A stretch of 64,000 bases of DNA, from positions 83,311-147,310 of the forward strand of contig JAGATD010000033.1 of assembly GCA_017621415.1 (NCBI GenBank), in the 5' to 3' direction. Both the position numbers and the translations under genes were made by a program. A model generated the notes under the pieces. That model saw only the letters and a program-made list of their open reading frames with translations. It ran no database searches and was not told the DNA's origin. Source of the stretch: Clostridia bacterium. GTDB lineage: Bacteria > Bacillota > Clostridia > Oscillospirales > CAG-272. Below, in pieces: positions 6,373 to 57,316 of this stretch (positions are counted from its first letter, which is position 1; each line of letters opens with the position of its first letter).

Positions 6373-7235
6373 TGATGAAAACTGTAATTGGAATAGATGT
6401 TGGAGGCAGCACAACTAAGATTGTGGGCTTCCGTATAGAAAAGGGGTGCTGCGAGCTGATAGAGCCGCAGATAGTTAAGGCTAATGACCCCATAACTGCG
6501 ACATATGGCGCTTTTGGAAAATTTACTGATGAAAACAATCTGAAGTTTTCTGATATAGCCAAGGTTTATATGACAGGTGTAGGCTCTGCCTACATTCGCA
6601 AAAATCTTTACGGTCTCTCTTGCGAGAGAGTAGAGGAATTTAACAGTATAGGACAGGGCGGACTTTATCTTTCGGGCCTCTCTGAAGCCTTGGTTGTGAG
6701 CATGGGTACAGGTACTGCTATGGTACATGCAAAGGCAGATGGAAAAATGACCTACCTTGGCGGTACGGGTGTCGGCGGCGGTACTCTTATGGGACTTTCA
6801 AAGCTTATGCTCGGCGCTGAAACCGTTGAACACATTATCGAATATGCCGAGGAGGGCAGCCTTGATAACATAGACCTGAAAATCAAGGATATGACCGCTG
6901 ACGATTCGCTCACGGCATTGTCTCGCGACCTTACCGCAGCTAACTTCGGAAATGTATCCGACCTTTGCACAAAAAACGATATTGCTATCGGAATTCTCAA
7001 TCTTGTTTTCGAGACGGTGGCTATGGTATCTGTTTTTGCCGCCAGAAGCGTTGGTGTATCTGACATTGTGCTCACAGGAAGCATAACTCAGCTGGCTCTG
7101 TGCCGTAAGAAGTTTGAGGAGCTTAATGCTATGAATTACGGTGTTAAATTCCATGTTCCAGAGCGCTCAAGGTATGCAACAGTCATAGGTACGGCTATCA
7201 GAGCTATACCGTGTGAGTACTGCGAGGTAAATTAA
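6372..7235 (+). CDS. coaW: type II pantothenate kinase-like (Fumble/CoaW family, ASKHA fold)
   Basis: GIDVGGSTTKIVGF phosphate-1 motif, GTGTAMV, GGTGVGGGTLMGL, IVLTGS. The start overlaps the upstream stop (TGATG). Confidence 0.65.
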   Translation: MMKTVIGIDVGGSTTKIVGFRIEKGCCELIEPQIVKANDPITATYGAFGKFTDENNLKFSDIAKVYMTGVGSAYIRKNLYGLSCERVEEFNSIGQGGLYLSGLSEALVVSMGTGTAMVHAKADGKMTYLGGTGVGGGTLMGLSKLMLGAETVEHIIEYAEEGSLDNIDLKIKDMTADDSLTALSRDLTAANFGNVSDLCTKNDIAIGILNLVFETVAMVSVFAARSVGVSDIVLTGSITQLALCRKKFEELNAMNYGVKFHVPERSRYATVIGTAIRAIPCEYCEVN

Positions 7236-7237
7236 CC

Positions 7238-7660
7238 GTGAACATTCTACGCTTTATGGTTCCGAAAAGTTTGGTTGAATACCTGACGGAGGACCTTACT
7301 TTCAGGCAGGCGCTTGAAAAAATGAGATATCACAGATATGCCGCAATTCCTGTTCTCGACAGCGAGGGCAGATATGTCGGAACTCTTCGCAACGATGACG
7401 TATTGCGATTTATCTTGGAGCTTTCGGAATTCAGTCCCAAGGCGGCAGAGAAAATTTCGCTCTCCTCGCTTATGGATTCCAAGAGTGTAAAGCCTGTTTA
7501 TCATAATGCTTCAATGCAGGAGCTTATCGAACAGATAAAGGAGCACAATTTTGTTCCGGTTGTTGATGATAGGGGCTGTTTTATCGGCATTATACTTAGG
7601 CGGGACGTTTTAAATTATTTGTTGGACTTTTATAACGAAAATGACGGGGGTAACCAATAA
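7238..7660 (+). CDS. CBS-pair protein, CbpB/YkuL-like
   Basis: 140 aa, two CBS motifs (HRYAAIPVLDSEGRYVGTL; HNFVPVVDDRGCFIGIILRRDVL). GTG start preceded by GAGGT. Confidence 0.7.
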   Translation: MNILRFMVPKSLVEYLTEDLTFRQALEKMRYHRYAAIPVLDSEGRYVGTLRNDDVLRFILELSEFSPKAAEKISLSSLMDSKSVKPVYHNASMQELIEQIKEHNFVPVVDDRGCFIGIILRRDVLNYLLDFYNENDGGNQ

Positions 7661-38927: not shown

Positions 38928-39659
38928 TTATATTTGGCTCTCAGAGCTCATTTTGTATTTTCTGGGAGACATTCCGAAATGGGACTTAAAGGTTTTTGAA
39001 AAATATGCCATATCAAGGAACCCGCATTTTTGCGCAATTTCATTTACCGAAAGCTCGGTAGAGAGAAGCATATCTCCCGCATTTTTTATTCTCACGTGAT
39101 TTAGGAATTTTACAGGGGGCATTTTGGCAACCTCAAGAAATTTGCTTCTGATATAATCCTCAGCATAGCCGCTGGCGCGCATAAGATCGCCCGCTCTCAG
39201 ATGAGGGTCGCCATATCTGTCTTCCATTATGGAAATAATTCTGTAAATTGTGGAATACACATCCTTTGCGTACTCGGTGCGCTTCATAAGAGCAAAACGG
39301 ACAAGGGCATTTATGCAGGCATTTGCATAAGCCTCGTTCTCCAAAGCGTAGCGCAGGGCTGTCTCAGCGAGCATTTTTGCTTCGCCAAACTCTGTGTCGT
39401 GAGTTTCATAAATATCGGTCAAAAAGGTGAGGTTATCAAGGTGCTCACCTATAGAAATTATTCTGTGAGAGATTTTTGAACGGGTTGCATGAGGAACATT
39501 CGGCGGTGCAATAAAAAGGCATCCCGGAGAAAAGGGAATTTCTCCGTACTGGGTGATAAGTGAGCCCTCGCCCTCCAGGACAAACATTATTTCGTGATGT
39601 GGGTGGGTGTGCATTGGCCTAAAGTTAACATTAGGCGCCGTGACCTGTGCGTACAACAT
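38928..39659 (-). CDS. AraC-family transcriptional regulator with N-terminal cupin sensor domain
   Basis: Cupin HTHPHHEIMFVLEGEG; C-terminal AraC HTH LSVNEIAQKCGFLDMAYFSKTFKSHFGMSPRKY. Confidence 0.85.
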   Translation of the reverse strand: MLYAQVTAPNVNFRPMHTHPHHEIMFVLEGEGSLITQYGEIPFSPGCLFIAPPNVPHATRSKISHRIISIGEHLDNLTFLTDIYETHDTEFGEAKMLAETALRYALENEAYANACINALVRFALMKRTEYAKDVYSTIYRIISIMEDRYGDPHLRAGDLMRASGYAEDYIRSKFLEVAKMPPVKFLNHVRIKNAGDMLLSTELSVNEIAQKCGFLDMAYFSKTFKSHFGMSPRKYKMSSESQI

Positions 39660-40085: not shown

Positions 40086-43000
40086 ATGAAAAAATTAAAT
40101 TTTTTAATTGCTTCTATGATACTTTCGCTTGCTGTGCTTGCTTCCTGCACAGGTGGTGAAAGCGAGGATAGTAAAAACAACCCGGGCGGCGGTCAAGAGG
40201 GAGAGACAGCTTCTATTGCGATAATCTTCCCCAATACCGAAAACAGTAAGGTTACAGACAGTTTTTATGAATTTTATTATGCGCTTGGAGACCTTACAGG
40301 AGCAACACCTGAGCTTATCGGTGCAACCGACAGTCGGCGAGAGAGGGAAATCATTTTCGGCAAGAGTGAGCGAGATGTATCTGTTGAGGCTTACCGCAGA
40401 CTTGAAAGAATAGATCTTTCTGATGAGGATATAGATGCTAAAAATCCCAGGGTGCTTATCTACTCTGACGGAAAGTCTGTTGCGGTGGCATATGAGGAGT
40501 GCGAGGATGATGTTGCGCTTATTACGGCTATCGGCATACTTAATGAGAAAATTTCTTCCTTGTATCCTACCACGCAATCGGGCGTTTTACATAAAGAGGT
40601 TGTAAGCCTCGATAAATACTATCAGGCTATTGATGATAAAATGATTTCTGAAAAATGGGCAGCTCTCGAAGACAAGATAGGCGGAACTCTTGGAAAAGAC
40701 ATTGTATCCGCTATGAAAGGGTTGTATTCGCTTTATTCTGATGACCTCATCTCCTGGTTTGCAAACCTTTATGACCCGGCGGTAGGCGGATTTTATTATT
40801 CAAATTCCGCGAGAAATACCGATGGCTATCTTCCCGATGCAGAAAGTACAGAGCAGGCGTTGCGTTTTATTAACACATCGGGCATGATTGAGGGTGTAGC
40901 CGACAGCTATGCAAAGGCCCTGCCGGAGGAGATAGGCGAGCAAATAGTTAACTTTATATACAATCTCCAGGACTCTAACGGATATTTCTATCATCCCCAG
41001 TGGTCAAAAGAGGCGGTAGATAACAGAGTATCCCGCCGTTCAAGAGACCTTAGCCACTGTGTATCAATACTTTCTGCCTACGGTGTGGCTCCCCAGTATA
41101 AAACTCCGTCGGGTGTTGACACCGAGAATGCAGAGCCTGTATCATTCGTTAATCTTACAGGTCGGCTTAGAGCATCTGCTGTTAGCGCGGTTTCGAAAAT
41201 CATTGCGGCCTCAGACTCGGAGGTTGCCGTTGACCCTAATCTTAAGGATGACGTAAGCTTCCGCAAATATCTTGACAGTCTTGATGTACAAAACAATTCA
41301 TACAGCGCAGGAAACACACTTACCGCATTTTTCAGCGAGATAGAGTATAGAGACAGTGTTTTGCAGGAGCAGAATGTTGGTTACTCGCTTGTTGATATAA
41401 TGATAGAGCATCTCAACTCAAAGCAGTTCGAGCATAACGGCCTCTGGCACAAGGAGACTAATTACTACGCAGTAAACGGACTTATGAAGATAAGCGGTGT
41501 TTACTCAAAGGCGGGAGTTCCTATTCCCAATTCCGAGAAGGCTACAAGAGCCGCCATGGATGCCATAACCTCCGAGGAGGAAGCGGGCGCTGTAACCGAT
41601 ATTTATAACACATGGTTCGCAGTCAGCCGTATGTTCAATATTATGACAAAGTATGGCGGTGCAGAGGGAGAAGCCCTCACTGAGACAATGAGAGCCGAGC
41701 TGCTGGCAAAAGCACCTGAGGCTATCAAGACAACGGCTGAAAAATTTGCGGCATTCCTTAAGGAAGACGGCTCATTCTCCTACACTCCTATGTATTCTTC
41801 CAAGAACTCTCAGGGTATGCCGGTTGCTGTTCCAAACAGTGTCGAGGGAGATGTAAACGCAACCGTAATTTGCAGCTCTGATGTTCTCGGTTACATATAT
41901 AGCGCTCTTGGTCTTAGCGATTATAAGGTTCCTATGTGTACATACAACGATTGGAGACATTATAAGGCGATTCTAGAAAATCTTGGACCCGTAATAAAGG
42001 ATACTGAGGATCCTATATACGAGCCGATAAGCTTTGACGATCAATCCCTTGACCAGGAAGAGATATATATAGAAAATCTTACGTTCTCCGAGCGCTCAAA
42101 GGCTGCGGGCGGCGGAGTATCTCTTATCGCTGACCCGAGAGAGGGCTATACTGGAAATGTTCTCAAGGTAACATCTATCACAGGAACAAGCGATTCTATT
42201 GATATAAGCTCGCCCAATCTGTCTCACGCATTTTCTTGCTTCGCTTTTGAGGGAGATTTCTGTCTTGTTTCATCAAATACCGATTTCCCTGTAAGATTTT
42301 CGATAGGTGATTGCTACATTGTATCATTGAAGATATCCGACGGCCACATAAGGCTTGTACAGTCCACCTCGGGAACGGCAAGCAAGTCTCAGGACACAAT
42401 TCTCTGCGACGGACCTGCGCTTGGCGAGTGGTTCAGCTTTAAGGTAGAGTATTACAAGGGCGACCATAACACAGTGCGTATAAAGTTCTATTTTGACGGT
42501 GACCTCACAGACGGTAAGGCGCTTAAGCTTGTTGCTGTAACCGACGGATACTGCGACCCCGAGGGCTTAAAGTTTACCGAGGGCTTTGGCGAGCCGGCTA
42601 CACAGTATCATAGCACTAACCTTTGGTTTATGAAAGGGTATGATATTGTAATGCTTATGGATAACGTAGCATCCTATAAGTCAAACGATATCTACAGGAA
42701 ATATACCGATACAAAAAATCCCCTTAAGCTTAATGTTGATGCGCCTATCCCCGAAGCAGGAGACGATGCGTCAGGCATTCCCGCTTATACAGATACCTAT
42801 TATAATCTTGCGGAAGTAATAGGATCAAGATACGACTATTCTCAAAATCTCGCAAAGGATAGTATATTCAACAAGAAGTACGATAGCGAGACAGATAAAT
42901 CCACCGTCTCACTCCCAACAGTTACAGGTGTTTCGGGCGGAAAGCTTAATGTATCAAACCTCTCTAACTGGACAGCATTCGCTATCGCAAACCTTTCGGA

Positions 43001-45326
43001 GAATAAGGCAGGTACAGCGGGCGCAAAATACGTCTTTGATACAACATTTGTATGGATTGGCGGTCGTCAGACCGAGGGCACAGGCGCTGCCGCATACATC
43101 GGTCCTCTCGGCGCGCATAAGGCGGTTGATAACACATATATGCATGCGTACACCGAAATGACCTTCTCTGAAACCGACCCCGATATTATTTTTGTCGGCG
43201 GCGCGAAGCTTGAGAAAGGAAAAGCCTACAATATAAGAATAGAGTACATTGTGGGTGAATCGATACACGTCTACGTTGATAACGTAGAGGCTTACGGCGG
43301 CTTTGTTGCAAAGGGAGCTAATGCTGATGAAACAACCTTTGAGGCATTCGGCTTCTACATGCGTAAAAACTACGTTGACGCCTTTGAATTCACTTTTGAC
43401 AATACCTTTGTGGGTGTTGTTTATCCCGACAGCGAGGGAGATTATCCTATAGTTGCCGTTGACCCCAACGCGCCTCCTGCCGATGCGGGACTTCCCGAGG
43501 GTCTTGAAACACTTTATGCAAACACTGAGTATAACGGAACAAGATACGACTTTACAACCGTAGCAGATTACACAACAGATAAGATCTATAACAAGACCTC
43601 TGGTGACGGTGTTATAGCAGCCAATATCGCTAAGGTTAAAGACGGCAAGCTCTACGTTGACAATATGGGTCTTAGATGGGAGGCTCTGGCGTTCAAGAAC
43701 GAGGGCGCGACCGAAGGCGGCGATGGATACACTTATGTCTTTGAGGCGGATATCAGATGGATCTCAGGACATCAGGCGACAGATCAGCTGGCAAGCGGCG
43801 CTGCATTCATTGGCTTCCTCGGTGAGCATGCAGCGGTAGAAAATAGCTATATGCCGGCCTGGGGTTATATGAAGTTTATCGAGGGCGAAAGCAACAAGAT
43901 GATAATAGGCAACACCGAGATAAATCGCGGCACAACCTACAATCTTCGCTTCGAATATACCGTTGGTACAGGAGTTAAGATGTATGTAAACGGCACTCTT
44001 GCCGACTTTGGAAAGACTAACGCAGGCAAAAACGGTGACAGCTCCACATACCAGGGCTTCGGTATTTACTTAAGAAAGAGCTTTGCTCCCGACCTTGAAT
44101 TTACCGTTGATAACGTATATATGAATGTATTTGGGCCTGATGATATTGTTCCCGACACAACTCCCGGAAAGCCTATTCAGACCGAAACAGCAAAGGTTCT
44201 TTCCACACCTACAGGTGCTGATGGCATTGTTGTGCTGATGCACGATGACGGAACACTCGATACAGTAAGTATAATGGATAAGATCTTTGCCGACTACGGT
44301 CTGAGAGGAAATATTGCTCTTCTCGGTAACAAAGTATATGCAGACGGCGCTTATAAAACTGCCGAGATAGCAAAATGGCAGGCATATCTTAACACAGGCC
44401 GTTGGCAGATATCCTCTCACTCAATGACTCACACCTTTTGGGGACTTACCGACAAGGCAGAAACGGTTTATGCACCCGACGGCACAACTGTTCTTGCAAC
44501 AATTACCGAAGACGGAATGATCACTTATGAGGTAGTAACCTCAGCTGAGATTTTGCGTACCGCTTTCCCGGGACAAAGAGTACTCACCTTTGCTTATCCC
44601 GGCTTCTGGGCGCAGCGCTCACTTGGCGAAAGCCGCTTCTCAGCGGTGGCAAGGCTTCTTGTTGATAAGACCTATATCGCTGGCAGAGATGCTTACGGGA
44701 ACGCAAACATTTCACTGGCAGACAAAACAACCGATTGGGAGTTCTCTCCCTCGTATCAGCTTGACAGCACTAATGTAAACGACATTGTTACTGCGGTGAA
44801 TAGAGCTAAGAACGGACAAATGGCAGTTATCTTTACTCACAAGGTAATAAGCGACGACACTGAGATTCCGTCAGGCTCTGAAACAAGCTACATTCACGAG
44901 AGTGACTACTGCACCGTTGCGGCAAAGGTTAAGGATCTTGCAGATGACGGTAAGGTGTGGAATGCATTTTACGAGGATGCAGTACTTTACACCAGAGAAG
45001 CGCAGGCGGCAAATCTTACATACAGCGCTACGGGCTCAAAGATAAGGTTTAATCTTACAACCCCCGACCTTGATGTTGATATATACAACTATGCTCTCAC
45101 TGTCAGGGTTCTTGTTCCCGAAGCTTGGCAAACCGTTAAAATAGCGCAGGGAAAAAATGAAAAAGAAGTGACTGCAAGCCTTAAGGACGGTGTTTGGTGC
45201 GTTGATGTTGAGGTTGTTCCCGGTAGTGGAACAGTAACTTTGACTAATGCTGCAGAGCCTGATGTTCCCGATGTTGAGGGGGCCCCTGACAGCGGTGATA
45301 TAAGCGGCGATTGGACCGAAAACTGA
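40086..45326 (+). CDS. 1746-aa multidomain lipoprotein: N-domain, alpha/alpha-toroid-like domain, three LamG-like jelly-roll modules, CE4/NodB-like polysaccharide deacetylase domain, C-terminal beta domain
   Basis: Lipobox MKKLNFLIASMILSLAVLASC. The toroid region (nt ~40641-41990) is collinear with 45352..46725. Modules end in MLMDNVASY, FTFDNTFVGV and FTVDNVYMNV. Deacetylase-like VVLMHDDGTLDT ... SSHSMTHTFW. Confidence 0.85.
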   Translation: MKKLNFLIASMILSLAVLASCTGGESEDSKNNPGGGQEGETASIAIIFPNTENSKVTDSFYEFYYALGDLTGATPELIGATDSRREREIIFGKSERDVSVEAYRRLERIDLSDEDIDAKNPRVLIYSDGKSVAVAYEECEDDVALITAIGILNEKISSLYPTTQSGVLHKEVVSLDKYYQAIDDKMISEKWAALEDKIGGTLGKDIVSAMKGLYSLYSDDLISWFANLYDPAVGGFYYSNSARNTDGYLPDAESTEQALRFINTSGMIEGVADSYAKALPEEIGEQIVNFIYNLQDSNGYFYHPQWSKEAVDNRVSRRSRDLSHCVSILSAYGVAPQYKTPSGVDTENAEPVSFVNLTGRLRASAVSAVSKIIAASDSEVAVDPNLKDDVSFRKYLDSLDVQNNSYSAGNTLTAFFSEIEYRDSVLQEQNVGYSLVDIMIEHLNSKQFEHNGLWHKETNYYAVNGLMKISGVYSKAGVPIPNSEKATRAAMDAITSEEEAGAVTDIYNTWFAVSRMFNIMTKYGGAEGEALTETMRAELLAKAPEAIKTTAEKFAAFLKEDGSFSYTPMYSSKNSQGMPVAVPNSVEGDVNATVICSSDVLGYIYSALGLSDYKVPMCTYNDWRHYKAILENLGPVIKDTEDPIYEPISFDDQSLDQEEIYIENLTFSERSKAAGGGVSLIADPREGYTGNVLKVTSITGTSDSIDISSPNLSHAFSCFAFEGDFCLVSSNTDFPVRFSIGDCYIVSLKISDGHIRLVQSTSGTASKSQDTILCDGPALGEWFSFKVEYYKGDHNTVRIKFYFDGDLTDGKALKLVAVTDGYCDPEGLKFTEGFGEPATQYHSTNLWFMKGYDIVMLMDNVASYKSNDIYRKYTDTKNPLKLNVDAPIPEAGDDASGIPAYTDTYYNLAEVIGSRYDYSQNLAKDSIFNKKYDSETDKSTVSLPTVTGVSGGKLNVSNLSNWTAFAIANLSENKAGTAGAKYVFDTTFVWIGGRQTEGTGAAAYIGPLGAHKAVDNTYMHAYTEMTFSETDPDIIFVGGAKLEKGKAYNIRIEYIVGESIHVYVDNVEAYGGFVAKGANADETTFEAFGFYMRKNYVDAFEFTFDNTFVGVVYPDSEGDYPIVAVDPNAPPADAGLPEGLETLYANTEYNGTRYDFTTVADYTTDKIYNKTSGDGVIAANIAKVKDGKLYVDNMGLRWEALAFKNEGATEGGDGYTYVFEADIRWISGHQATDQLASGAAFIGFLGEHAAVENSYMPAWGYMKFIEGESNKMIIGNTEINRGTTYNLRFEYTVGTGVKMYVNGTLADFGKTNAGKNGDSSTYQGFGIYLRKSFAPDLEFTVDNVYMNVFGPDDIVPDTTPGKPIQTETAKVLSTPTGADGIVVLMHDDGTLDTVSIMDKIFADYGLRGNIALLGNKVYADGAYKTAEIAKWQAYLNTGRWQISSHSMTHTFWGLTDKAETVYAPDGTTVLATITEDGMITYEVVTSAEILRTAFPGQRVLTFAYPGFWAQRSLGESRFSAVARLLVDKTYIAGRDAYGNANISLADKTTDWEFSPSYQLDSTNVNDIVTAVNRAKNGQMAVIFTHKVISDDTEIPSGSETSYIHESDYCTVAAKVKDLADDGKVWNAFYEDAVLYTREAQAANLTYSATGSKIRFNLTTPDLDVDIYNYALTVRVLVPEAWQTVKIAQGKNEKEVTASLKDGVWCVDVEVVPGSGTVTLTNAAEPDVPDVEGAPDSGDISGDWTEN

Positions 45327-45351
45327 TTTATCGGTACGAGGATTTTTGAAG

Positions 45352-46725
45352 ATGAAAAACGAAAAATATTATAAGGCTCTTGCCGACAAGGTTGGCGGTG
45401 AGCAGGGAATAAAAATAGCCGAGGCTATAAGAGATATGTACACTCTCTACAAGCCCGAAATGATAGACTGGTTTGCGAACCTTTACGACCCGGCAGTTGG
45501 CGGATATTATTATTCTAACGGCGCAAGAGATAACGAAAAAATTCACTACCAGGGTGTCAGCTACGACCTGCGCCCCGATACCGAGTCTACCGAGCAGGCT
45601 CTGAGGTTTATCAGCACCTCGGGTCTTCTCGGAGACGGAACGCTAAAGGAAAAGCTCCCCGCCTGGATGCAGGAGCAGATAGTAAGGTATATTAAAGGGC
45701 TACAGGACCCTAACGGATTTTTCTATAATCCCCAGTGGCCTAAGGAGCTTACCGACTCAAAGCTTTCAAGAAGAGCCAGGGACCTTAGCTGGTGCGTGTC
45801 TATTCTTGAAAACCTAGGCTCAGCGCCCACATACGATACCCCAACAGGGGTAAAGGGCGACGGACTTGACATAGACGGCAAACCCATTAAAGTCATTGGT
45901 GAAAGCTCCTGCACCGAGAGGGAAGAGGGGCCTAAAAGCTCGGTTGCGATACCAAAAGAGCTTGAAAACAAGGAAAGCTTCATTAATTATTTAAATTCCC
46001 TCGACATAAAGCACGAGTCCTACTCGGTAGGTAATACGCTGACAGCAATTGCAGGGCAGATAATTTACAGAGACAGGGAGCTTGAAGCTGCGGGAGCTGA
46101 CTATTCGCTCAGAAAGATTGTTATCGACTGGCTTAACGAAAACCAAAATCCCGAAAACGGACTCTGGCACGAGACCGCAAACTATTACGGAGTAAACGGT
46201 CTTATGAAAACCAGCGGAGTTTACGGCAAGATAGGGGTGCTGATGCCCCATGCCGACAAAGCGGTGAAATCCGCCATAGATGCTATAAGCACAGACCAGA
46301 CTCCCGGAGCTGTAACCGATATTTACAATACTTGGTTTGCGGTTACAAGAATTAAGCGACATTTGCGTACCTACGGCGGCGACGAGGGGCAGAGAATGGC
46401 AGATAAAATAGTCGAGGACCTAATAAAAATGGCTCCCGAGGCTATAAGAATTACCAAAGAAAAGCTTTCGGTATTCGCTAAGCCCTACGGCTCATTCTCT
46501 TACACTCCTATGGCATCGGCAGGCAGGTCACAGGGAATGCCTGTTACCTTTAGAGGCGCCTATGAGGGCGACGTTAACGCAACCATAATCTGCTCATCTG
46601 ATATTCTCGGATATATGTATTCTGCACTTGAATTGTCTGATGTGAGAGTTCCTATATATTCTCCCTTGGACTTCGTAAGATACATTGAAATTCTTGAGAA
46701 AAACAGGGCTAAAATTATTGGTTAA
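45352..46725 (+). CDS. alpha/alpha-toroid-like repeat protein, no signal peptide (paralogue of 779..2032 and of the toroid domain of 40086..45326)
   Basis: Collinear similarity to the lipoprotein toroid region over the whole length (WFANLYDPAVGG(Y/F)YYSN, STEQALRF, NGLWH.E.NYY.VNGLMK.SGVY, GAVTDIYNTWFAV, GSFSYTPM, EGDVNAT(I/V)ICSSD(I/V)LGY). Confidence 0.8.
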   Translation: MKNEKYYKALADKVGGEQGIKIAEAIRDMYTLYKPEMIDWFANLYDPAVGGYYYSNGARDNEKIHYQGVSYDLRPDTESTEQALRFISTSGLLGDGTLKEKLPAWMQEQIVRYIKGLQDPNGFFYNPQWPKELTDSKLSRRARDLSWCVSILENLGSAPTYDTPTGVKGDGLDIDGKPIKVIGESSCTEREEGPKSSVAIPKELENKESFINYLNSLDIKHESYSVGNTLTAIAGQIIYRDRELEAAGADYSLRKIVIDWLNENQNPENGLWHETANYYGVNGLMKTSGVYGKIGVLMPHADKAVKSAIDAISTDQTPGAVTDIYNTWFAVTRIKRHLRTYGGDEGQRMADKIVEDLIKMAPEAIRITKEKLSVFAKPYGSFSYTPMASAGRSQGMPVTFRGAYEGDVNATIICSSDILGYMYSALELSDVRVPIYSPLDFVRYIEILEKNRAKIIG

Positions 46726-46777
46726 ATAAAAAGAGCGCAACAAAAAACAAAATAAATTAAATTGAAAGGAGACTTTT

Positions 46778-46906
46778 ATGGAAAAGCTGAAAGAATTTTA
46801 TGAAGCGGCAGAAGTCGAGGTAGTTCTTTTTGAATTTTCCGATATTGTAACTACCTCAGGTTGGGTAGACCCGCCTGGTGAGGGTGACATTGGTGACTGG
46901 GCGTGA
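46778..46906 (+). CDS. small 42-aa ORF (MEKLKEFYEAAEVEVVLFEFSDIVTTSGWVDPPGEGDIGDWA), not in the ORF track; paralogue of 2092..2232
   Basis: ATG 7 nt after AAAGGAG (46765-46771). Same position between toroid gene and secreted jelly-roll gene as at 2092, with the same DI(I/V)TTSG core and acidic Gly-rich tail ending in W-x. Confidence 0.6.
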   Translation: MEKLKEFYEAAEVEVVLFEFSDIVTTSGWVDPPGEGDIGDWA

Positions 46907-46953
46907 AATTTGTAAAAACAAAATTTTCAAAAATATGAAAGGTGAAAAAAACT

Positions 46954-49146
46954 ATGAAAAACACAAACCATTCCCGCATTCTTATTTTAGCTCTCTCGCT
47001 TGTAATTCTCGTAGGCGCTATGGTTGGCTTCTCCTCAAGCGCTGAGGACACAGAATATACGAACGAGATCGTATCTATGAACATCGCATACGGCGACACA
47101 GTTCAGGTTCTTATTGCTCTTGACGCTCCCATAGACAACCAGGATGGTATTACTGTTAAGTATATCGACCCTAATGGTGACGAGCAGACCGCAACCTATT
47201 GGAAGACAATGGACGTTAAGGGTACCAATCGCCCTGTATGGTACACTAAGGGCATATCCGCAAAGGACCTTGGTCAGGATGTTGTTGCTACCGTTTATGT
47301 TGACGGTGAGGCTATCAGCACCGCAAATGTTAGCGTTGGACATTACCTTTACACAAAGCTTTACAAGGAAGGTTTTATCAACGCAACCGAAGAAACAGAC
47401 CTTCACAAGAAGGAGCTTTACCAGAACCTTCTTACCTATGCGGCATCTGCTGAGACTGTTCTTTGGAATGATAAGGCAGAGAATGCATCTAACCAGAGAG
47501 TTCTTATTACCGATAAGCTTTACGTTTATGCGGTTGATGGCACTGTTGACGCAGACAAGAAGCTGACAGAGGACGTGCTTACAAAGTCCGAAACTGTAAC
47601 TCTTAACTATACCGGCACCGCTCCAGAGGGATATGAGTTTACAGGAATTTGGCTTTCTTCTATCGACGGTACATCGGTAATAAAGGATGGCGTTGCTACA
47701 ATGCCTACCGTTCACGGTGTTTACGAGCCTATATTCGACTCTGTGACCCATACCGTCGGCAAGTATTATTCCAGCGAAACCGAGGGCACAAGATACGACT
47801 TTGATACAAAACTCAATCTTTCCGGTGACGATCAGACAGACCTCTCGGTTTATAATGCTGAAACCAATCCTACAGGCATTCTTGCAAACGAGCTTGGTGC
47901 AGATGCAACAGCCAGCCTTGTTTCCGATAAGCTTTCTACTCTTGACAACTCTACAGGCGAACTTGTATTTAATATGACCTCCACCGACTGGACCGGCTTC
48001 AATCTTGCTAACAAAAGTGACACAGAAGGTGCTACGGGCTCAAAGTATATCGCGGAGTTTGACTTTACCTACATTGATTCCGCAGCTTACACAGGCTCAG
48101 GCAGCTCCAATCAAGTTGCATTCTACATAGGACCCACATCTTATAACGAGAACGACAAGTATATGCACTCTATAACTCACGCAAAGTTTGAGGCAGACCG
48201 TGAGGTAATGATGTTCGGTAACGTTCCTGTGGTAAAGGGCAGAACCTATACTATTCGAATCGAAACCACCGTTGACGGTAGCTATGCTCTTTACGTTAAC
48301 GACGTTCTCGCTGCCGATAAGCCTGGTTATTACACCAATGAAGCTGAAATTCCTGCAGATTATGATGAAACAATCTATGCAGGCTTTGGATTCACTGTTC
48401 GTCAAAGACACGCAGGCGATAGCTTCTCGTTCTCTGTTGATAACTTCTATATGGGTACTATCGACTCATATTATGATGATAAGACGGTAGCAGGTGACAG
48501 ATACGACTTTACCGATAGCTTTGATGTTTCGGTATATGATGCGGAATCCAATTCCACAGGTCTTCTTGCAGGAACTCTTACAAACGATGATGTTGATGCT
48601 CTTCAGACTAAAAAAACTCTGTCGCTTACCAACACCGACAGTCGTCTTCTGGTTGATATGACAACAAGAGAATGGGCAGGATTTACTATTGCAAACAGAG
48701 AAGCAGTTACTGCATATGAAGGCTCTGTTCATATTGCCGAGTTTGACTTCACCTACATTTCTAACACTGCATATACCGGCACAAGCAAACCAGACTATAA
48801 TGCATTTGCTTTTGGTATCTCCAGTAGTGGAGGTGCTCTTAACAGTATGATCTGTTACAACTATGTGGACCACAAGGATGATACTTTTGGAGGATCTCTT
48901 GCATATAATACTGCAGTATTCGAGATGAACAAGACCTACAGGATAAGAATTGAGAGCACTGTTGGCGGTGACGAGCTTATCTACGTTGATAACGTTCTCG
49001 TTTCTAAAAACGCAAGTGCCAAAGGTAAATCGAACGATCCTTACATCTACGCAGGTCTTGGATTCTACTTCCGTGACAGACACGCAGGAGATGCTTTGTC
49101 ATTCTCTATCGACAATCTGTTTATGACAACTCTTGATCCTAAGTAA
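46954..49146 (+). CDS. secreted protein with an N-terminal beta-rich region and two LamG-like jelly-roll modules
   Basis: Start at ATG 46954 (AAAGGTG RBS). Signal peptide MKNTNHSRILILALSLVILVGAMVGFSSSA. Modules GTRYDF...KGRTYTIRIETTVDG..LYVNDVL...FSVDNFYMG and GDRYDF...NKTYRIRIESTVGG..IYVDNVL...FSIDNLFMT. Confidence 0.85.
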   Translation: MKNTNHSRILILALSLVILVGAMVGFSSSAEDTEYTNEIVSMNIAYGDTVQVLIALDAPIDNQDGITVKYIDPNGDEQTATYWKTMDVKGTNRPVWYTKGISAKDLGQDVVATVYVDGEAISTANVSVGHYLYTKLYKEGFINATEETDLHKKELYQNLLTYAASAETVLWNDKAENASNQRVLITDKLYVYAVDGTVDADKKLTEDVLTKSETVTLNYTGTAPEGYEFTGIWLSSIDGTSVIKDGVATMPTVHGVYEPIFDSVTHTVGKYYSSETEGTRYDFDTKLNLSGDDQTDLSVYNAETNPTGILANELGADATASLVSDKLSTLDNSTGELVFNMTSTDWTGFNLANKSDTEGATGSKYIAEFDFTYIDSAAYTGSGSSNQVAFYIGPTSYNENDKYMHSITHAKFEADREVMMFGNVPVVKGRTYTIRIETTVDGSYALYVNDVLAADKPGYYTNEAEIPADYDETIYAGFGFTVRQRHAGDSFSFSVDNFYMGTIDSYYDDKTVAGDRYDFTDSFDVSVYDAESNSTGLLAGTLTNDDVDALQTKKTLSLTNTDSRLLVDMTTREWAGFTIANREAVTAYEGSVHIAEFDFTYISNTAYTGTSKPDYNAFAFGISSSGGALNSMICYNYVDHKDDTFGGSLAYNTAVFEMNKTYRIRIESTVGGDELIYVDNVLVSKNASAKGKSNDPYIYAGLGFYFRDRHAGDALSFSIDNLFMTTLDPK

Positions 49147-49228: not shown

Positions 49229-49390
49229 AAGGCTTCCCCAGCGAAGCGTGTTGGGGAAACTGTCACGCAGTGACTGATGAGGTAAGAGATAGGCTAGATT
49301 ATTGTTTGACTTGCGTTTTTCTTAAAGTTAGCCTCTGGAACACCTCATCCGTCAGGCTTCGCCTGCCACCTTCCCCCACTGGGGAAGGCT
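49229..49390. repeat. inverted pair of REP/MITE-like double-hairpin elements (same family as 33021..33078 and 33141..33199)
   Basis: Left copy 49229..49283 (AAGGCTTCCCCA..TTGGGGAAAC TGTCAC-GCA-GTGAC TGATGAGGT). Right copy 49341..49390 in reverse orientation (CACCTCATCC GTCAGGC-TTC-GCCTGCC ACCTTCCCCC-ACT-GGGGAAGGCT). Confidence 0.75.
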
Positions 49391-49581: not shown

Positions 49582-49754
49582 TGATATATCTCTAACGAGA
49601 TATGATATACAGCTTTGCCGTATGATATATTTTCACTTCGTGAAAACATGATATAATATCCGTTCCTGAATATGCCGCAGGCATATATCATCGCTCGTAG
49701 AGCGATATCATACCAAAGGAATATCACCCGTTCCGCAGAGGAACGGATATCATT
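49582..49754. repeat. array of eight (A)TGATAT(A) motifs, four forward then four reverse, interleaved with short tetraloop-type hairpins
   Basis: ATGATATA at 49582, 49603, 49623 and 49649. Reverse complement (T/G)ATATCAT at 49685, 49705 and 49747, plus a partial AATATCAC at 49721. Hairpins: ATATCTC-TAAC-GAGATAT, TTTTCAC-TTCG-TGAAAA, ATATGCC-GCA-GGCATAT, CGCTC-GTA-GAGCG, CCGTTCC-GCAGA-GGAACGG. Confidence 0.7.
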
Positions 49755-49801
49755 GAGGCGCACTCCGTAAGGACGTGCGCCTCGAAAGAAGGGCTTTTTT
49801 A

Positions 49802-50626
49802 TTACATCTTCATCAGATAATCGTATGTAGCTTTTACAAGCTTTGTTTTTTGGTGCAGGACCTCTCGGGGGCAGTTCTTTGAGTCGCCGGGGATTTCATA
49901 GTTAAACATCCCCTCGTAATTTATCTCTCTCAGACCGTCAATAAAGTCCTGCCAGTCAATATTTCCACGGCTGAACGGGAGAATATGCTGGTCCTCACCG
50001 CCGTCGTTATCGTGAACGTGCAGAGCTTTTATAAGGCTTCCTCCCTTTACGAGAAATTCCTTTTGAGAGGAGGTTTTTGTCCTGTTAAGGTGGCCTGTAT
50101 CAAGGCAAATTGCAAATTTCGGTGAGCCAACTCTCTTGATTAGCTCGAGAATAGGGTCAATTCCCACAGGAGCGCCGCCGCCAAGGTTTTCAAGACAGAT
50201 GTACATATCAATATGCGCCGTACGTCTTGCAACCTCCTTAAGAGCAACAACATTTTTTTCAAATATGTCCTCGTCGGTCACATCAACCCCGCGCATATAG
50301 TCGCAGTGTAGAACAGAGCACTTAATGCCGATAGCCTCGTAGAGCTCTGCCTGGCGGACAATATAGTCAATAAAGCTTTCACCCTCGCAGACAATAAGAG
50401 AGGGAAAAGCCAAGTGACCCTGCGTTGCGGTAATGCCATGCTCAGCCATAAATTCTTTGAATTTTCTGCCGTTTTCTCTATAGTCTCCATCTCTTGCCAA
50501 AATGGCGCTGCCGTGCTCATGAGAAAGCTCAATATGAGTTACTCCGTCTTTTTCAAACTCGAGAATAGCCTCTTCGGGCTCCTCGGTGTTGTAATACTGT
50601 GACCATATACTAAATGGCGCGTTCAT
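49802..50626 (-). CDS. xylose-isomerase-like TIM-barrel protein (sugar phosphate isomerase/epimerase family)
   Basis: 274 aa; THIELS, CLENL, CLDTGH and HVHDN patterns typical of the AP_endonuc_2 fold. Confidence 0.75.
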   Translation of the reverse strand: MNAPFSIWSQYYNTEEPEEAILEFEKDGVTHIELSHEHGSAILARDGDYRENGRKFKEFMAEHGITATQGHLAFPSLIVCEGESFIDYIVRQAELYEAIGIKCSVLHCDYMRGVDVTDEDIFEKNVVALKEVARRTAHIDMYICLENLGGGAPVGIDPILELIKRVGSPKFAICLDTGHLNRTKTSSQKEFLVKGGSLIKALHVHDNDGGEDQHILPFSRGNIDWQDFIDGLREINYEGMFNYEIPGDSKNCPREVLHQKTKLVKATYDYLMKM

Positions 50627-52642: not shown

Positions 52643-55156
52643 TTAAGATTTTGCCGGTCCTGCGGTGTCGGAGCCGTCTCCGACCAGTCCGAGGCGCTTT
52701 GCGGCATCCTCTCTCATCTTATATTTAAGAACCTTTCCCGCAGCATTCATAGGGAAGCTGTTAACAAATTCAATGTACTTCGGAACCTTATGACGCGCCA
52801 TACTTGCCTTAATGTAGTCGGACATTTCCTCAACGGTAACGCTACCCGGCTCTTTAAGGATAATGCAAGCCATAATTTCCTCACCGTATTTTTTATCGGG
52901 AACACCGATAACCTGTACGTCCTTTGTCTGAGGGTGAGTATAGATGAACTCCTCAATTTCTTTAGGATAAATATTTTCGCCTCCGCGGATTATCATATCC
53001 TTAAGACGTCCTGTAATGCGGTAGTTGCCATCCTCGTCACGGGATGCAAGGTCGCCCGAGTGAAGCCAGCCGTCCTCGTCTATTGTGCCCTTTGTTGCCA
53101 TAGGCATTTTGTAATAGCCTTTCATCTGGTTGTAGCCCTTGGCGCAGAACTCACCGTTAACACCGGGTCCAACCTCTTCGCCTGTTTCGGGGTCTACTAT
53201 CTTGCAGCGAACGTGCGGGAATGCGTATCCAACCGTTTCGGTACGCACCTCAAGTGAGTCAGTCCAGGAGCTCATTGTGTTTCCGGGAGCGCATTCGGTC
53301 TGACCGTAAACGCTGACAATACCTGTCATATTCATTTCATCGGGCCTTGCGGCTCTGCGCATAAGCTCAGGGGGACAGCCCGCACCTGCCATAATACCTG
53401 TTCTCATATGGGAGAAGTCGGTAGAACGGTAGCTTGGGTGGTTAAACATTGCGATAAACATCGTGGGAACGCCGTTAAAGCAGGTGATTTTTTCCTGATT
53501 TATACAAGCGAGAGATGATTTTGCGGAGAAGTATGGCATAGGACACATGGTAGTTCCGTGGGTCATTGATGATGTCATAGACAGTGTCATTCCGAAGCAG
53601 TGGAACATAGGCACCTGAATCATCATTCTGTCAGCGGTGGAAAGACCCATGCGGTCGCCTATACACTTGCCGTTATTTACAACATTGTAGTGAGTAAGCA
53701 TAACTCCCTTAGGGAAGCCTGTTGTTCCTGAGGTGTATTGCATGTTACATACATCGCTTGGGCGTACCGCCGCTGCCATTTTAGCAACCTGCTCGGAGCT
53801 TACAAGCTTGTATCTTGCCATAGCCTCGTCAAAGGTGAGAGAGCCGGGCTGCTTGAAGCCTACTGTAATAACATTTCTGAGGAATGGCAGCTTCTTTGAA
53901 TGAAGAGGCTCGCCGGGAACGGTGTCTTTTATTTCGGGACAGAGTGTGTTTATAATTTCCTTGTAGTTTGAGTCAAGGCAGCTGTCAATCATAACCAGTG
54001 TATGGGTATCAGACTGACGGAGCAGGTACTCGGCCTCGTGAATCTTATATGCGGTGTTAACTGTGACAAGAACTGCACCGAGCTTTACGGTAGCCCAGAA
54101 TGTGATATACCACGCGGGAAGGTTTGTTGCCCATATTGCAACCTTAGAGCCCGCCTTTACACCAAGAGAAACAAGAGCTCTTGCAAAGCGGTCAACGTCC
54201 TCACGGAACTCGGCATAGGTTCTTGTGTAATCAAGTGTTGTGTACTTAAAGCAGTACTGGTCAGGGAACTCGTCGGCAACTCTGTCAAGCACCTGTGAAA
54301 ATGTAAGGTCGATAAGCTCGTCTTTTTTCCACACATACTGGCCTGTGCCGTCATGGTTGAAGTAGAGTTTCTTTTTCATATCCCTTGTTGAATGGAAGCG
54401 GGACATGTAGTTTACAAAATGAGGGAAAATAATTTCGGGGTCAGAGAGCTCGTCGAGCCACTCGGGCTTCCACTCAAGAGAGATAAAGTTATCGTAGTTT
54501 ACCGAGGAAAGAGCGCGCATAACGTCGTCAATAGGCATACTGCCCTCGCCGATAAGCTGATATGTTCCCTCATCGTCAGAGTCTCTTAAGTGAACATGGC
54601 GCACATAGCAGCCAAGGTTTTTTATTGTATCATCACCCGACTCACCGTTGTCTCTGTATGGGTGATGAACGTCCCAAAGAACCGCAAGATTGTCGCTTGC
54701 AAAACGGTCAAGCATATCTCTAAGTCTTGCTGTGTTTGAATAAATTCCGCTTGTTTTTACAAGAATTGTAACATCCGAGGCTTCAGCATAAGGTAAAAGC
54801 TCGGTGAGCACCGAATATACAGTATCCTCATTGTCATTAAGCGCGCATACAACAACATAGGGCACACGGCTGTCGCTTGCAGTATTTATAAGAGACTTTA
54901 CGGTATCCTTTACAGATGGGTCTTTGGAGATGTCGCAGGATGTGTCAAAGCAGGGAATAGTGAGCTGCTTTTCGCGAAGAGTGCGCACTGTTGCAGCAGT
55001 ATTATACTTGTGGAAAGGACCTCCGCGGTCGGTAAGAGCATTAAAGCTTTGAAGATTATAAACCTCTATGCCGGAAAAACCCATTTCCTGCGCTGTTTCC
55101 AGCATTTCATCAAAGGACAGCCCCGGCCAGCCTCTTGTGGAAAAGGAGAGCTTCAT
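52643..55156 (-). CDS. fusion protein: N-terminal xylose-isomerase-like TIM barrel (~270 aa) + C-terminal AMP-forming acyl-CoA synthetase/ligase (~560 aa)
   Basis: N-terminus: MKLSFSTRGW...GFSGIEVY...HVHLRD...SLEW. C-terminus: AMP-binding motif YTSGTTGFPKGV, GYGQTE-like VYGQTE, WLHSGDL, GRLKDMIIRGGENIYPKEIE. ATGA overlap with the upstream gene. Confidence 0.85.
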   Translation of the reverse strand: MKLSFSTRGWPGLSFDEMLETAQEMGFSGIEVYNLQSFNALTDRGGPFHKYNTAATVRTLREKQLTIPCFDTSCDISKDPSVKDTVKSLINTASDSRVPYVVVCALNDNEDTVYSVLTELLPYAEASDVTILVKTSGIYSNTARLRDMLDRFASDNLAVLWDVHHPYRDNGESGDDTIKNLGCYVRHVHLRDSDDEGTYQLIGEGSMPIDDVMRALSSVNYDNFISLEWKPEWLDELSDPEIIFPHFVNYMSRFHSTRDMKKKLYFNHDGTGQYVWKKDELIDLTFSQVLDRVADEFPDQYCFKYTTLDYTRTYAEFREDVDRFARALVSLGVKAGSKVAIWATNLPAWYITFWATVKLGAVLVTVNTAYKIHEAEYLLRQSDTHTLVMIDSCLDSNYKEIINTLCPEIKDTVPGEPLHSKKLPFLRNVITVGFKQPGSLTFDEAMARYKLVSSEQVAKMAAAVRPSDVCNMQYTSGTTGFPKGVMLTHYNVVNNGKCIGDRMGLSTADRMMIQVPMFHCFGMTLSMTSSMTHGTTMCPMPYFSAKSSLACINQEKITCFNGVPTMFIAMFNHPSYRSTDFSHMRTGIMAGAGCPPELMRRAARPDEMNMTGIVSVYGQTECAPGNTMSSWTDSLEVRTETVGYAFPHVRCKIVDPETGEEVGPGVNGEFCAKGYNQMKGYYKMPMATKGTIDEDGWLHSGDLASRDEDGNYRITGRLKDMIIRGGENIYPKEIEEFIYTHPQTKDVQVIGVPDKKYGEEIMACIILKEPGSVTVEEMSDYIKASMARHKVPKYIEFVNSFPMNAAGKVLKYKMREDAAKRLGLVGDGSDTAGPAKS

Positions 55157-56605: not shown

Positions 56606-56880
56606 CAAAAAAACAAAAATCCCTGAGGCTGCCAAACGCAGCTTCAGGGACGAAAATACATTTCGCGGTACCACCCTGATTATCCCCCAAAAAGGGAAAT
56701 CTCTCAACCTCAAACAAGGTATTGCCCTGTAACGGTGGCATCCGTGTCTCATTACTCGCGTATCGCTTTGACAAGACCGACTCGGGAAGAAGAATGCCCA
56801 ACCCATCCGTATCGGCTTACACCAACCGCCGACTCTCTGCAACATCCGAAAAGGGCAAGATTTCCGTCACTGTCTTTAAG
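56606..56880 (-). promoter_or_regulatory. T-box leader (tRNA-sensing riboswitch) with terminator/antiterminator
   Basis: On the - strand: K-turn GACAGUGACGGAA, AGAGAG box, distal GGUUGGUGUAAGCC, F-box CCGUUA, T-box AAUCAGGGUGGUACCGCG. Terminator CCCUGAAGCUGC-GUUU-GGCAGCCUCAGGG followed by AUUUUUGUUUUUUU. Confidence 0.9.
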
Positions 56881-57057: not shown

Positions 57058-57065
57058 AAACTCAT

Positions 57066-57316
57066 AAAAACTGTGACGAAGACGGTACGGTGAAAAAGTT
57101 CTCAGAGAATCGGCGGTTGGTGTGAGCCGATAGCTTGTAGCCTCAGTGCCTATCACTTCCGAGTTGGTGGTTCGAGCGATTATCGCCAGGGCTTACCCGT
57201 GCACCCGCGTTAAGGGATAGGGCTTGTTGGAGTCTGAAGCGGCGATCTATCGCAATTTGAGTGGTACCGCGGGTATATTTACTCGTCTCAAGAATTATTT
57301 CTTGAGATTTTTTTGT
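57066..57316 (+). promoter_or_regulatory. T-box leader (tRNA-sensing riboswitch) with terminator/antiterminator
   Basis: K-turn AACUGUGACGAAG, AGAGAA box, distal GGUUGGUGUGAGCC, F-box-like GCGUUAA, T-box AAUUUGAGUGGUACCGCG. Terminator UCUCAAG-(7 nt)-CUUGAGA followed by UUUUUUU. Confidence 0.9.

Follow-up and report, generated by a model that had tools for sequence, protein, structure and literature searches.

Two series of four consecutive genes, lying on the same strand and in the same order, occur in a stretch of 64,000 nucleotides from the genome of a Clostridia bacterium, and they raise the question of whether such an arrangement represents a local duplication or a unit with a function of its own, and of what this function could be. 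The whole stretch will be referred to as the window, with a locus A near its start and a locus B covering positions 40086..49146. Each locus associates the genes of a surface protein with jelly-roll modules, a giant in locus B and most likely also in locus A, an all-helical toroid protein, a small peptide and a secreted protein of the ConA-like type (Table 1). An earlier interpretation made from the sequence and its open reading frames, called here the sequence-only reading, had considered both loci as the diverged products of a cassette duplication, maintained as a functional unit and not corresponding to any described system. The comparison with other genomes leads to the well-supported conclusion that the cassette is a conserved functional unit, which belongs to a previously undescribed operon family limited to a lineage of uncultured gut Clostridia and much larger than two loci. 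The most unusual and most testable feature of this family is a tail mimicry, in which the small peptide copies the C-terminal tail of the giant protein encoded by the same locus.

All eight open reading frames recognized by the sequence-only reading are present on the forward strand, at the positions and in the order it had given for both loci, together with the short spacers and the AAAGGAG-type ribosome-binding sites, which occur 5' of both peptide genes; AAAGG-type sites precede both downstream genes. Pairwise comparison of the stand-alone toroids A and B yields 38% identity (E 4e-91), peptides A and B share 41% identity over 27 residues, including the DI(I/V)TTSG stretch, and the upstream genes show only a weak likeness (E 0.14). 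The downstream secreted proteins had been assumed to share both their N-terminal regions and their C-terminal modules. The first part of this assumption holds for some 350 residues (30% identity across ~356 N-terminal residues, E 9e-19), whereas the C-terminal modules of the two proteins give no significant BLAST alignment, even if both proteins end in ConA-like jelly rolls. Similarly, the upstream "jelly-roll gene" does contain jelly-roll modules, but that of locus B encodes a lipoprotein of 1746 residues which harbours a third copy of the toroid. The fragment at 1..719 resembles, with 30-33% identity (E 3e-19), the three repeated C-terminal modules of a toroid lipoprotein of 1573 residues from locus L016, where the gene order is the same as in the window locus, and it most likely represents the 3' end of a giant with a toroid, truncated at the edge of the window. 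Promoter-like sites occur upstream of the locus B giant, no terminator-like site was detected on the forward strand within 40086-49146, and both stand-alone toroids of the window possess their own start sites. Locus A also contains a perfect GC-rich palindrome (GCCCGACGC..GCGTCGGGC) at 735..757, between the stop codon of the upstream giant and toroid A, which may serve as an internal attenuator or RNA-processing site; locus B has no equivalent of it.

A scan of 185,579 species genomes retrieved 265 encoding stretches, and the locus counts given below rest on the best 72 loci, distributed among 15 metagenome-assembled genomes (MAGs); synteny counts cover 73 stretches, i.e., these 72 loci plus the window. 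The MAGs are labelled as Eubacteriales, Clostridia, Oscillospiraceae or "uncultured Ruminococcus", their sources include roe deer and goat among others, and a single MAG carries up to 18 loci. In a set of 5.8 billion proteins, at least 265 toroid homologues were identified, all of them unnamed and all from uncultured Clostridia, and 1363 representatives were found at E<=1e-3 among 1.84 billion cluster representatives (clusters at 50% identity), many of them 900-2400 residues long. The hidden Markov model (HMM) of the toroid family gave 181 domain matches across the loci. The recurrent layout consists of a giant of 1200-2350 residues with its toroid at approximately residues 190-660 and, immediately 3' of its gene, between one and six genes for stand-alone toroids. 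Giant, stand-alone toroid, peptide and secreted protein succeed one another in exactly this order in 16 of the 73 stretches, and the order giant, peptide and secreted protein occurs in nine; the giant adjoins a stand-alone toroid in 43/73, the peptide immediately follows a toroid gene in 35/73 and immediately precedes the secreted protein in ~29/73, with median spacers of 47 nucleotides between toroid and peptide and of 45 nucleotides between peptide and secreted protein. Because the arrangement recurs in dozens of loci of other genomes, it lies far beyond chance. Anchored on the toroid, the comparison of gene neighbourhoods thus reveals a strong synteny outside this genome, so that the opposite view, namely four genes which are neighbours in this genome alone, falls. 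The maintenance of the four genes as a unit is therefore borne out and the two loci are indeed homologous, but as members of a large paralogous family rather than as a two-copy duplication.

A regulator gene has to be added to this unit. Regulators of the AraC family, approximately 280 residues long and provided with a cupin or PocR sensor, flank the giant/toroid block, and the corresponding cluster (cluster 0) comprises 39 copies in 34 loci. The window regulator at 38928..39659(-) combines an HTH_18 domain (68 bits) with a Cupin_2 domain (41 bits), which assigns it to the AraC/XylS type, while the L014 regulator consists of PocR (77 bits) and HTH_18. In two cassettes with no AraC gene in view, the first gene encodes a fusion of a helix-turn-helix domain (HTH_3), an SRA-like domain and a toroid, and another such fusion precedes a giant. 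These HTH_3, SRA-like (PF18491) and toroid fusions measure ~685 residues (L044 5357..7411; L048 6063..8129; L088 2236..4299). In L006, the gene at 6591..9389 encodes a 932-residue fusion of the N-terminal region of the secreted protein (residues 3-332) with a toroid (residues 462-928), which looks like a Rosetta-stone link between two components of the cassette. Tandem arrays of four to eight toroid-containing genes, devoid of peptide and secreted-protein genes, occur in L010-L012, L019, L053 and L057. No cassette protein reaches a Pfam or NCBIfam threshold and no PADLOC match at E<=0.01 was obtained among seven cassette proteins, which on this count do not qualify as anti-phage defence proteins. 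In this respect, and with a peptide motif that is absent from the searchable literature, the absence of any described counterpart suspected by the sequence-only reading is upheld.

The giant of locus B starts with a lipobox and a domain of ~160 residues, followed by the toroid, three ConA-like jelly-roll modules, a NodB-like region with a weak Polysacc_deac_1 match (residues 1379-1506) and an acidic Trp tail. Its toroid, the third of the window, shares 49% identity with the stand-alone toroid B (E 5e-141). A lipobox-like N-terminus, typical of lipoproteins, occurs in at least 77 of 97 diverse relatives of the giant. A Pfam scan of 29 giants yielded only occasional ConA-like, deacetylase (Polysacc_deac_1), Flg_new and SdrD_B matches, along with sub-threshold Laminin_G_3, Polysacc_lyase and 3-keto-disaccharide-hydrolase matches.

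The toroid itself was modelled with AlphaFold2 from toroid B and an alignment of 33 sequences, and the resulting model is all-helical (pLDDT 94.4, pTM 0.92). Foldseek comparison with the PDB gave only weak matches (best E 1e-3, TM 0.28-0.36), headed by class II terpene cyclases and including drimenyl-diphosphate synthase, GH76 mannanase, transcobalamin, complement TED and GH88/105; for six-hairpin glycoside hydrolases, E ranges from 0.06 to 0.8 with TM up to 0.36. All of these weak matches belong to the six-hairpin or α/α toroid superfamily. Searches against PDB sequences, using either a single sequence or a profile, returned nothing meaningful, and Pfam Prenyltrans (PF00432) was found below threshold in two of the 33 members (best E 0.024) and not in the window toroids. 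Toroids contain repeated prenyltransferase-like motifs, e.g., IVRYIKGLQDPNGFF and VIDWLNENQNPENGLW, of the form hydrophobic-x2-hydrophobic...Q-[DN]-P-x-G-[FL]-[FW], and an invariant P-D-x-E-S-T-x-Q motif. The DxDD motif (D.DD) is absent from all 33 members, DDxxD occurs in three of them and is not conserved, and the invariant or nearly invariant columns contain no Cys or His, so that no Zn ligands are available; because of these absences, the toroid is not a canonical cyclase, prenyltransferase or LanC protein.

The toroid is encountered in three contexts: it forms a domain of surface lipoproteins, stands alone in the cytoplasm, or is joined to HTH_3 and the SRA-like domain. Thirteen key residues, D76, E78, Y125, W129, R140, R143, D144, W272, K286, N326, E405, D407 and N409, are at least 95% conserved in both the giants and the cytoplasmic stand-alone toroids. 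In mid-size lipoproteins, W272, E405, D407 and N409 are less conserved (0.70-0.91) and the remaining nine are conserved at 0.96 or more, and the HTH-toroid fusions retain 26 of the 28 invariant positions. The thirteen residues are also kept in loci without peptide and without tail. The acidic ones among them, D76, E78, D144, E405 and D407, belong to the invariant positions of the alignment and may be candidates for catalytic carboxylates like those of six-hairpin glycoside hydrolases. Such a distribution suggests that a single ligand or chemistry could be used on both sides of the membrane and for sensing, and the simplest candidate for this ligand would be a glycan or a glycoside product. The toroid was ruled out as a receptor specific for the variable tail described below, since toroids with 92% identity are associated with unrelated tails and loci devoid of the peptide keep the conserved site.

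The secreted proteins form a family of 450-730 residues with a signal peptide and a conserved N-terminus (EIISKNVxY...LMYAVD). The AlphaFold2 model of secreted protein A (pLDDT 82) ends with a ConA-like jelly roll, for which Foldseek retrieved, with E 2e-7 to 5e-5 and a probability of 1.00, alginate lyase PL36, PL14 and PL20 lyases, legume lectins, the lectin-like Hc-N domain of clostridial neurotoxins (BoNT) and CBM40; these matches assign it to the ConA-like jelly-roll fold, with Laminin_G_3 and Polysacc_lyase remaining below threshold. A GH4 enzyme follows the peptide in place of the secreted protein in three loci, and the locus neighbours comprise GH94, GH36, DUF4838, Gfo/Idh/MocA oxidoreductases, xylose-isomerase-like TIM barrels and, by reading of the sequence, GH1-like proteins. 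In the window, a Gut-1 RNA motif (Rfam RF01706, 54.9 bits) lies at 49680..49755 (-), between the last cassette gene and a xylose-isomerase-like TIM gene at 49802..50626 (-).

The small peptides constitute a third family, whose HMM was built from 17 peptides, including both peptides of the window, and which matches 40 of the 73 stretches, always on the cassette strand; a search for hidden peptides in the peptide-less loci found none. A Shine-Dalgarno-like site precedes 31 of 42 peptide genes. At the database level, the peptide profile retrieves at least 189 clusters (90% identity), all of them unnamed, with lengths of ~33-60 residues. The alignment contains an invariant M1 and invariant Y, D, S and W residues, and each peptide consists of two parts, a conserved N-module, Y-x-x-[PA]-x-[LIV]-[ED]-[IV]-x-x-[LF]-x3-D-[IV]-[IV]-[TA]-[TA]-S, and a tail of 10-25 residues rich in Gly, Asp, Glu and Ser, which usually ends in GWT just before the stop codon; the tail of peptide B reads GWVDPPGEGDIGDWA. 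The N-terminus of the peptide exhibits several acidic residues and no hydrophobic core. With a pN/pS of ~0.47 for the N-module and ~0.41 for the tail, at synonymous sites near saturation, the family appears to be under purifying selection.

It is in the tail that the peptide and the giant meet. In many giants, a Pro-rich linker is followed by an acidic Trp tail like that of the peptide of the same locus, e.g., EGAPDSGDISGDWTEN for the giant and ...GEGDIGDWA for the peptide in the window, ...GDNGGWTPERP and ...GDMGDWTPERN in L018, ...TDDAFGWT and ...SSDNFGWT in L072. The mean similarity of the Trp-anchored tails amounts to 13.7 BLOSUM units within loci vs 1.0 between loci (19 pairs, permutation p<=5e-5), and the peptide tail is thus a copy of the C-terminal tail of the giant from its own locus. 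Tail-bearing giants are commoner in loci with a peptide (19/42) than in the others (3/25; Fisher p=0.0067), and the segment preceding the tail contains 13% Pro in tail-bearing giants vs 2.7% in other giants. A recent gene conversion was discarded as the cause of this likeness, the codons being different at synonymous sites, as was the derivation of the N-module from the C-terminus of the giant, since the ends of the giants match the peptide HMM in its tail part alone, the N-module being peculiar to the peptide.

Loci L001-L003, which are orthologous to locus B, offer a direct view of how these components change. Their DNA is 75-85% identical to that of the window in the regulator and toroid genes, in the part of the giant gene that encodes its first 1346 residues, and in the downstream flank, but the segment 44124..45356, which covers the distal NodB-like region and the tail of the giant, is replaced in them by unrelated sequence, and so is the segment 46784..49782, which covers the tail of the peptide and the secreted protein. 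Accordingly, toroids 92% identical between the window and L001-L003 are found with unrelated peptide tails. In these swaps, the peptide and the secreted protein travel together. Two replaced segments in otherwise similar loci indicate that cassettes evolve by module swapping.

Taken as a whole, the cassette could be a paralogous operon family, controlled by AraC regulators or by HTH-toroid fusions, which builds a glycan-binding or glycan-processing complex at the cell surface, with the peptide as a tag mimic, an adaptor or a competitor. This explanation is put forward tentatively, at somewhat less than even probability, and the mechanism proposed for the cassette enjoys moderate to low support. 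The adjacent AraC-type or HTH-toroid regulator would control the operon. The giant, lipid-anchored by its N-terminus, would expose a membrane-proximal toroid and distal lectin- or lyase-like modules of the ConA type, completed by a deacetylase-like module in some copies, and the secreted ConA-like protein would be its partner in the surface complex. The toroid would bind or cleave a small ligand available both outside and inside the cell, with a glycan or a glycoside product as the likeliest candidate, and its cytoplasmic paralogues, some of them fused to a DNA-binding domain, would process or sense this ligand. The tail of the giant, acting in cis, and that of the peptide, acting in trans, would serve as tags that dock to one and the same locus-specific partner, which is most likely the secreted protein encoded next to the peptide, so that the peptide would be a mimic of the tag, an adaptor or a competitor during the assembly or the regulation of the complex. 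The N-module, finally, may act as a leader-like or adaptor element recognized by a machinery that different cassettes have in common.

Several observations weigh against this explanation. The peptide has no recognizable signal peptide, although its proposed partners are extracellular. No cassette protein passes a family threshold and the structural matches of the toroid are weak, so that "glycan-active" is a guess from the context. No transporter gene recurs in the 72 loci, whereas a sugar-utilization locus of a Gram-positive bacterium normally has one. The correspondence between tail and peptide is incomplete: giants without a tail occur in the peptide-bearing loci L001-3 and L016, L031 has a tail-bearing giant without a peptide, and a peptide is present without a secreted protein or a stand-alone toroid in L037 and L056. 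In addition, distant peptides with the N-module and without the Trp tail lie 13-21 nucleotides 3' of other giant secreted proteins; one is located beside a complete fn3/PKD/Flg_new protein of 3085 residues without toroid, another beside an LRR protein of 1032 residues. The peptide is thus not specific to the cassette, and its occurrence beside toroid-less giants indicates that, in these bacteria, the N-module generally accompanies giant secreted proteins and is not a toroid-specific element. In L082-84, the peptide is the first gene after an AraC regulator and is followed by two proteins of ~500 residues without Pfam matches, a giant and smaller proteins. At L080 10360..15462 (- strand), a cluster of PqqD, NTP_transf_5, ScmC, S24-like peptidase and ABC transporter genes is convergent to a distant member of the peptide family; as a partner of the peptide this cluster was set aside as probably a coincidence, having no counterpart in the other loci or the window, though it deserves mention in view of the YxxPxL-like motif.

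A bolder version of the proposal would see in the giant tail and the peptide a hitherto unknown tag-and-mimic system, in which a separate leader-core peptide carries a copy of a docking tail and co-evolves with it locus by locus, either as an adaptor that assembles the surface complex or as a signal or competitor that reports on it, the wider N-module family representing an as yet undescribed type of accessory factor for clostridial giant secreted proteins in general. This version is rather unlikely to hold in full.

Four other explanations, which rank in the order of credence in which they are taken here, have been considered for the same data. The first one, peptide signalling of the RRNPP or ComQX-like type, would make the peptide a leader-core precursor whose Trp tail, once released and possibly modified, is detected by the cytoplasmic toroid; the toroid, as an HTH fusion or in concert with the AraC regulator, would then control the operon, and the tail of the giant could be shed as the same signal. 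The leader-like N-module with its small-residue motif ([TA][TA]S, then G), a tail that differs by locus around an invariant Trp, the peptide gene placed directly 3' of a toroid gene, and the HTH_3-toroid fusions heading cassettes that also encode the peptide all fit such a scheme. Moreover, the weak resemblance of the toroid to prenyltransferase/terpene-cyclase folds brings to mind the ComQ-ComX pair, in which prenylation affects a Trp close to the C-terminus. However, 92%-identical toroids pair with completely different tails, the toroid site is conserved to the same degree in the extracellular giants and in numerous loci without a peptide, and N-module peptides occur beside toroid-less giants. 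The cassettes contain neither a signal peptide for the peptide nor an exporter, an Opp system or a histidine kinase, and the toroid has no conserved DDxxD or DxDD motifs and no Zn ligands, all of which makes this explanation improbable.

The second explanation, a variable adhesin or surface coat, is equally improbable. The surface would be diversified for attachment to host or plant material or for phage evasion, with the toroid and the jelly rolls as binding or structural elements and the cytoplasmic toroids as spare parts for recombination. The accumulation of up to 18 loci per MAG, the modular replacement, between orthologous loci, of the distal part of the giant and of the peptide with the secreted protein, the tandem toroid-gene arrays (L010-L012), the lectin-like folds and the Flg_new repeats of some members would all be expected from such a coat. 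Silent cassettes, however, do not resemble the cytoplasmic toroids, which are full-length, keep all of the key residues and, in the window, have their own start sites; moreover, the AraC sensors and the sugar-metabolism neighbours point to a nutrient response, and the HTH-toroid fusions imply the sensing of a ligand.

A third, quite doubtful possibility is a unit producing a ribosomally synthesized and post-translationally modified peptide (RiPP), where the stand-alone toroid would be a prenyltransferase- or cyclase-like tailoring enzyme that modifies the Trp at the C-terminus of the peptide and perhaps also the tail of the giant before its export. Lasso peptides have a leader of the type YxxPxL...T(-2) and a core with Gly1 and an Asp or Glu at positions 7-9, accompanied by B (protease/RRE) and C (lasso cyclase) genes. 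The leader-core architecture, the tight adjacency of toroid and peptide, the fold class of the toroid and the likeness of Y-x-x-[PA]-x-[LIV], with Thr at -2 and Gly at +1, to the lasso-type leader speak in its favour, but across the 72 loci no lasso B/C enzymes, RRE, radical SAM enzyme, protease or exporter were found. The lasso peptide as such was rejected on inspection, many cores breaking the ring rule by starting with T, R, N or V or by lacking D/E at 7-9, and B or C genes being absent from the 72 loci and the window. Furthermore, the toroid has no DxDD motif or Zn ligands, its site is kept just as well in domains located outside the cell, a compartment in which prenyl diphosphates would be unexpected, and many toroid loci have no peptide. 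A polymorphic toxin-immunity system, with the giant as the secreted effector and the tandem stand-alone toroids as immunity proteins or orphan modules, is very improbable, since, in spite of one to six small paralogous genes in tandem behind a giant secreted protein and a modular C-terminal replacement, the "immunity" genes are homologous to the conserved N-terminal domain of the giant rather than to partners of its variable C-terminus, no toxin domain occurs in the giants, which are lipoproteins with lectin-like modules, and there are no PADLOC or toxin family matches.

Whether or not the surface complex proves to be the right explanation, in an abundant lineage of uncultured Clostridia from the gut of herbivores, dozens of loci and hundreds of kilobases of each genome are taken up by a cassette whose every component is unannotated. 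Three families, the toroid, the small peptide and the secreted ConA-like protein, are newly defined here, together with their fixed gene order and their regulators, and they offer an entry point into a large, "dark" part of the surface biology of Gram-positive gut bacteria. Since the same conserved toroid site is present in extracellular proteins, in cytoplasmic ones and in a transcription factor, the question of the ligand can be put to a direct test. It is unusual for a free peptide to copy the C-terminal tail of a surface protein with a locus-specific co-variation, and such a peptide, if functional, would represent a new way to assemble or regulate surface complexes.

The features of both loci are collected in Table 1. 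Elsewhere in the window, two divergent T-box leaders occur at 56643..56879 (-) and 57064..57293 (+), the latter just 5' of an unusual HTH/Cupin_2/AMP-binding fusion gene at 57443..59710, next to which lies a second Cupin_2/AMP-binding gene, without HTH, at 59860..62145. A TIM-barrel/AMP-binding fusion is encoded at 52643..55156 (- strand). The gene at 7660..13014 (+), unrelated to the cassette, encodes a highly charged, coiled-coil-like protein of 1784 residues without Pfam match; its sequence includes long, acidic stretches of low complexity and, at the C-terminal end, a single hydrophobic segment resembling a tail anchor.

Table 1. Features of loci A and B in the window (aa, amino acids; HMM values refer to the models of the respective families).
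Feature	Position	Strand	Remarks
Fragment of a probable giant, locus A (3' end, 5'-truncated by window edge)	1..719	+	ConA-like jelly-roll module
Stand-alone toroid A, 417 aa	779..2032	+	family HMM E 5e-147
Small peptide A, 46 aa, tail end GGWT	2092..2232	+	family HMM E 1e-18
Secreted protein A, 484 aa	2299..3753	+	signal peptide, conserved N-terminal region, one ConA-like jelly roll
AraC-family regulator, divergent from locus B	38928..39659	-	Cupin_2/AraC_binding sensor and HTH_18 (Pfam)
Giant surface lipoprotein, locus B, 1746 aa	40086..45326	+	open reading frame; lipobox LAVLASC
Toroid domain within locus B giant, aa 186-632	40641..41981	+	HMM E 8e-175
Acidic Trp tail at giant C-terminus (EGAPDSGDISGDWTEN)	45276..45323	+	resembles tail of peptide B
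Stand-alone toroid B, 457 aa, without signal peptide	45352..46725	+	all-helical alpha/alpha toroid model
Small peptide B, 42 aa, tail end DWA	46778..46906	+	family HMM E 4e-17; AAAGGAG Shine-Dalgarno
Secreted protein B, 730 aa	46954..49146	+	signal peptide, conserved N-region ~250 aa, two ConA-like jelly-roll modules
Terminator-like hairpin past last cassette gene	49369..49388	+	sole + strand candidate in 39500-49900

Compared with known systems, the cassette shares isolated traits with several of them. RRNPP systems (PlcR-PapR, NprR-NprX, Rgg-SHP) pair a TPR-type receptor, which bears an HTH domain, with a propeptide that is secreted and then taken up again, and in ComQXPA the polyprenyl synthase ComQ, with its DDxxD motifs, is encoded upstream of comX and the ComP kinase downstream. 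The cassette resembles the former by a peptide gene that adjoins a helical-repeat cytoplasmic protein, sometimes fused to HTH_3, and by a peptide with a conserved N-part and a variable C-part, but with ComX it has in common only the Trp near the C-terminus. Unlike RRNPP receptors, the toroid is closed and gives no TPR match, its HTH fusion concerns a minority, and the peptide has no export signal; unlike both systems, the tail does not co-vary with the toroid, Opp, histidine kinase and ComQ-type synthase are lacking, and the same toroid also occurs outside the cell. With the toroids of prenyltransferases and class II terpene cyclases (PF00432, SQHop_cyclase; SHC 8pak, MstE 6sbd) and of the six-hairpin clan (GH76, GH88/105, transcobalamin, complement TED), the cassette toroid has in common an all-helical toroid architecture, as modelled, with structural matches that are its best ones but weak. 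It differs from cyclases and prenyltransferases by TM values of 0.28-0.36, by passing no Pfam threshold, by the lack of DxDD (0/33) and of invariant Cys/His, and by its additional occurrence in extracellular lipoproteins and in HTH fusions.

In the cellulosome, multi-modular surface enzymes dock to their partner by a C-terminal element through the cohesin-dockerin interaction. The cassette giants are similarly multi-modular, with a C-terminal element past a Pro-rich linker that could dock, and the sugar-type regulators and adjacent glycoside hydrolases of the cassette loci recall polysaccharide utilization loci. However, the "tag" of the cassette is a linear tail of ~12-20 residues instead of a folded dockerin, the cassette proteins include no cohesin, dockerin or SusC/D homologues, and the loci contain no transporter. 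To our knowledge, a free peptide with the same tag has no counterpart in cellulosomes or polysaccharide utilization loci.

Another parallel is that of the csc clusters (cscA-D, with WxL-domain proteins) of Lactobacillus plantarum and other Gram-positive bacteria, which are reported to be absent from clostridia (Siezen et al. 2006, PMC1534035). Like the cassettes, csc clusters are paralogous, exist in multiple copies and comprise approximately four gene families each, and both associate surface or secreted proteins with putative sugar-binding domains and a small protein in proposed surface complexes for carbohydrate acquisition. Conversely, there is no homology between them, with no WxL, DUF916 or LPXTG matches among the cassette proteins (Pfam, NCBIfam), and all Csc proteins have signal peptides (PMC1534035), in contrast to the stand-alone toroid and the signal-less peptide as cytoplasmic members of the cassette. 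The lipoprotein anchor, the AraC regulators and the tail mimicry distinguish the cassette from csc. Homologous neither to csc clusters nor to polysaccharide utilization loci, the cassette may nevertheless be regarded, by analogy, as their conceptual counterpart in Gram-positive gut bacteria.

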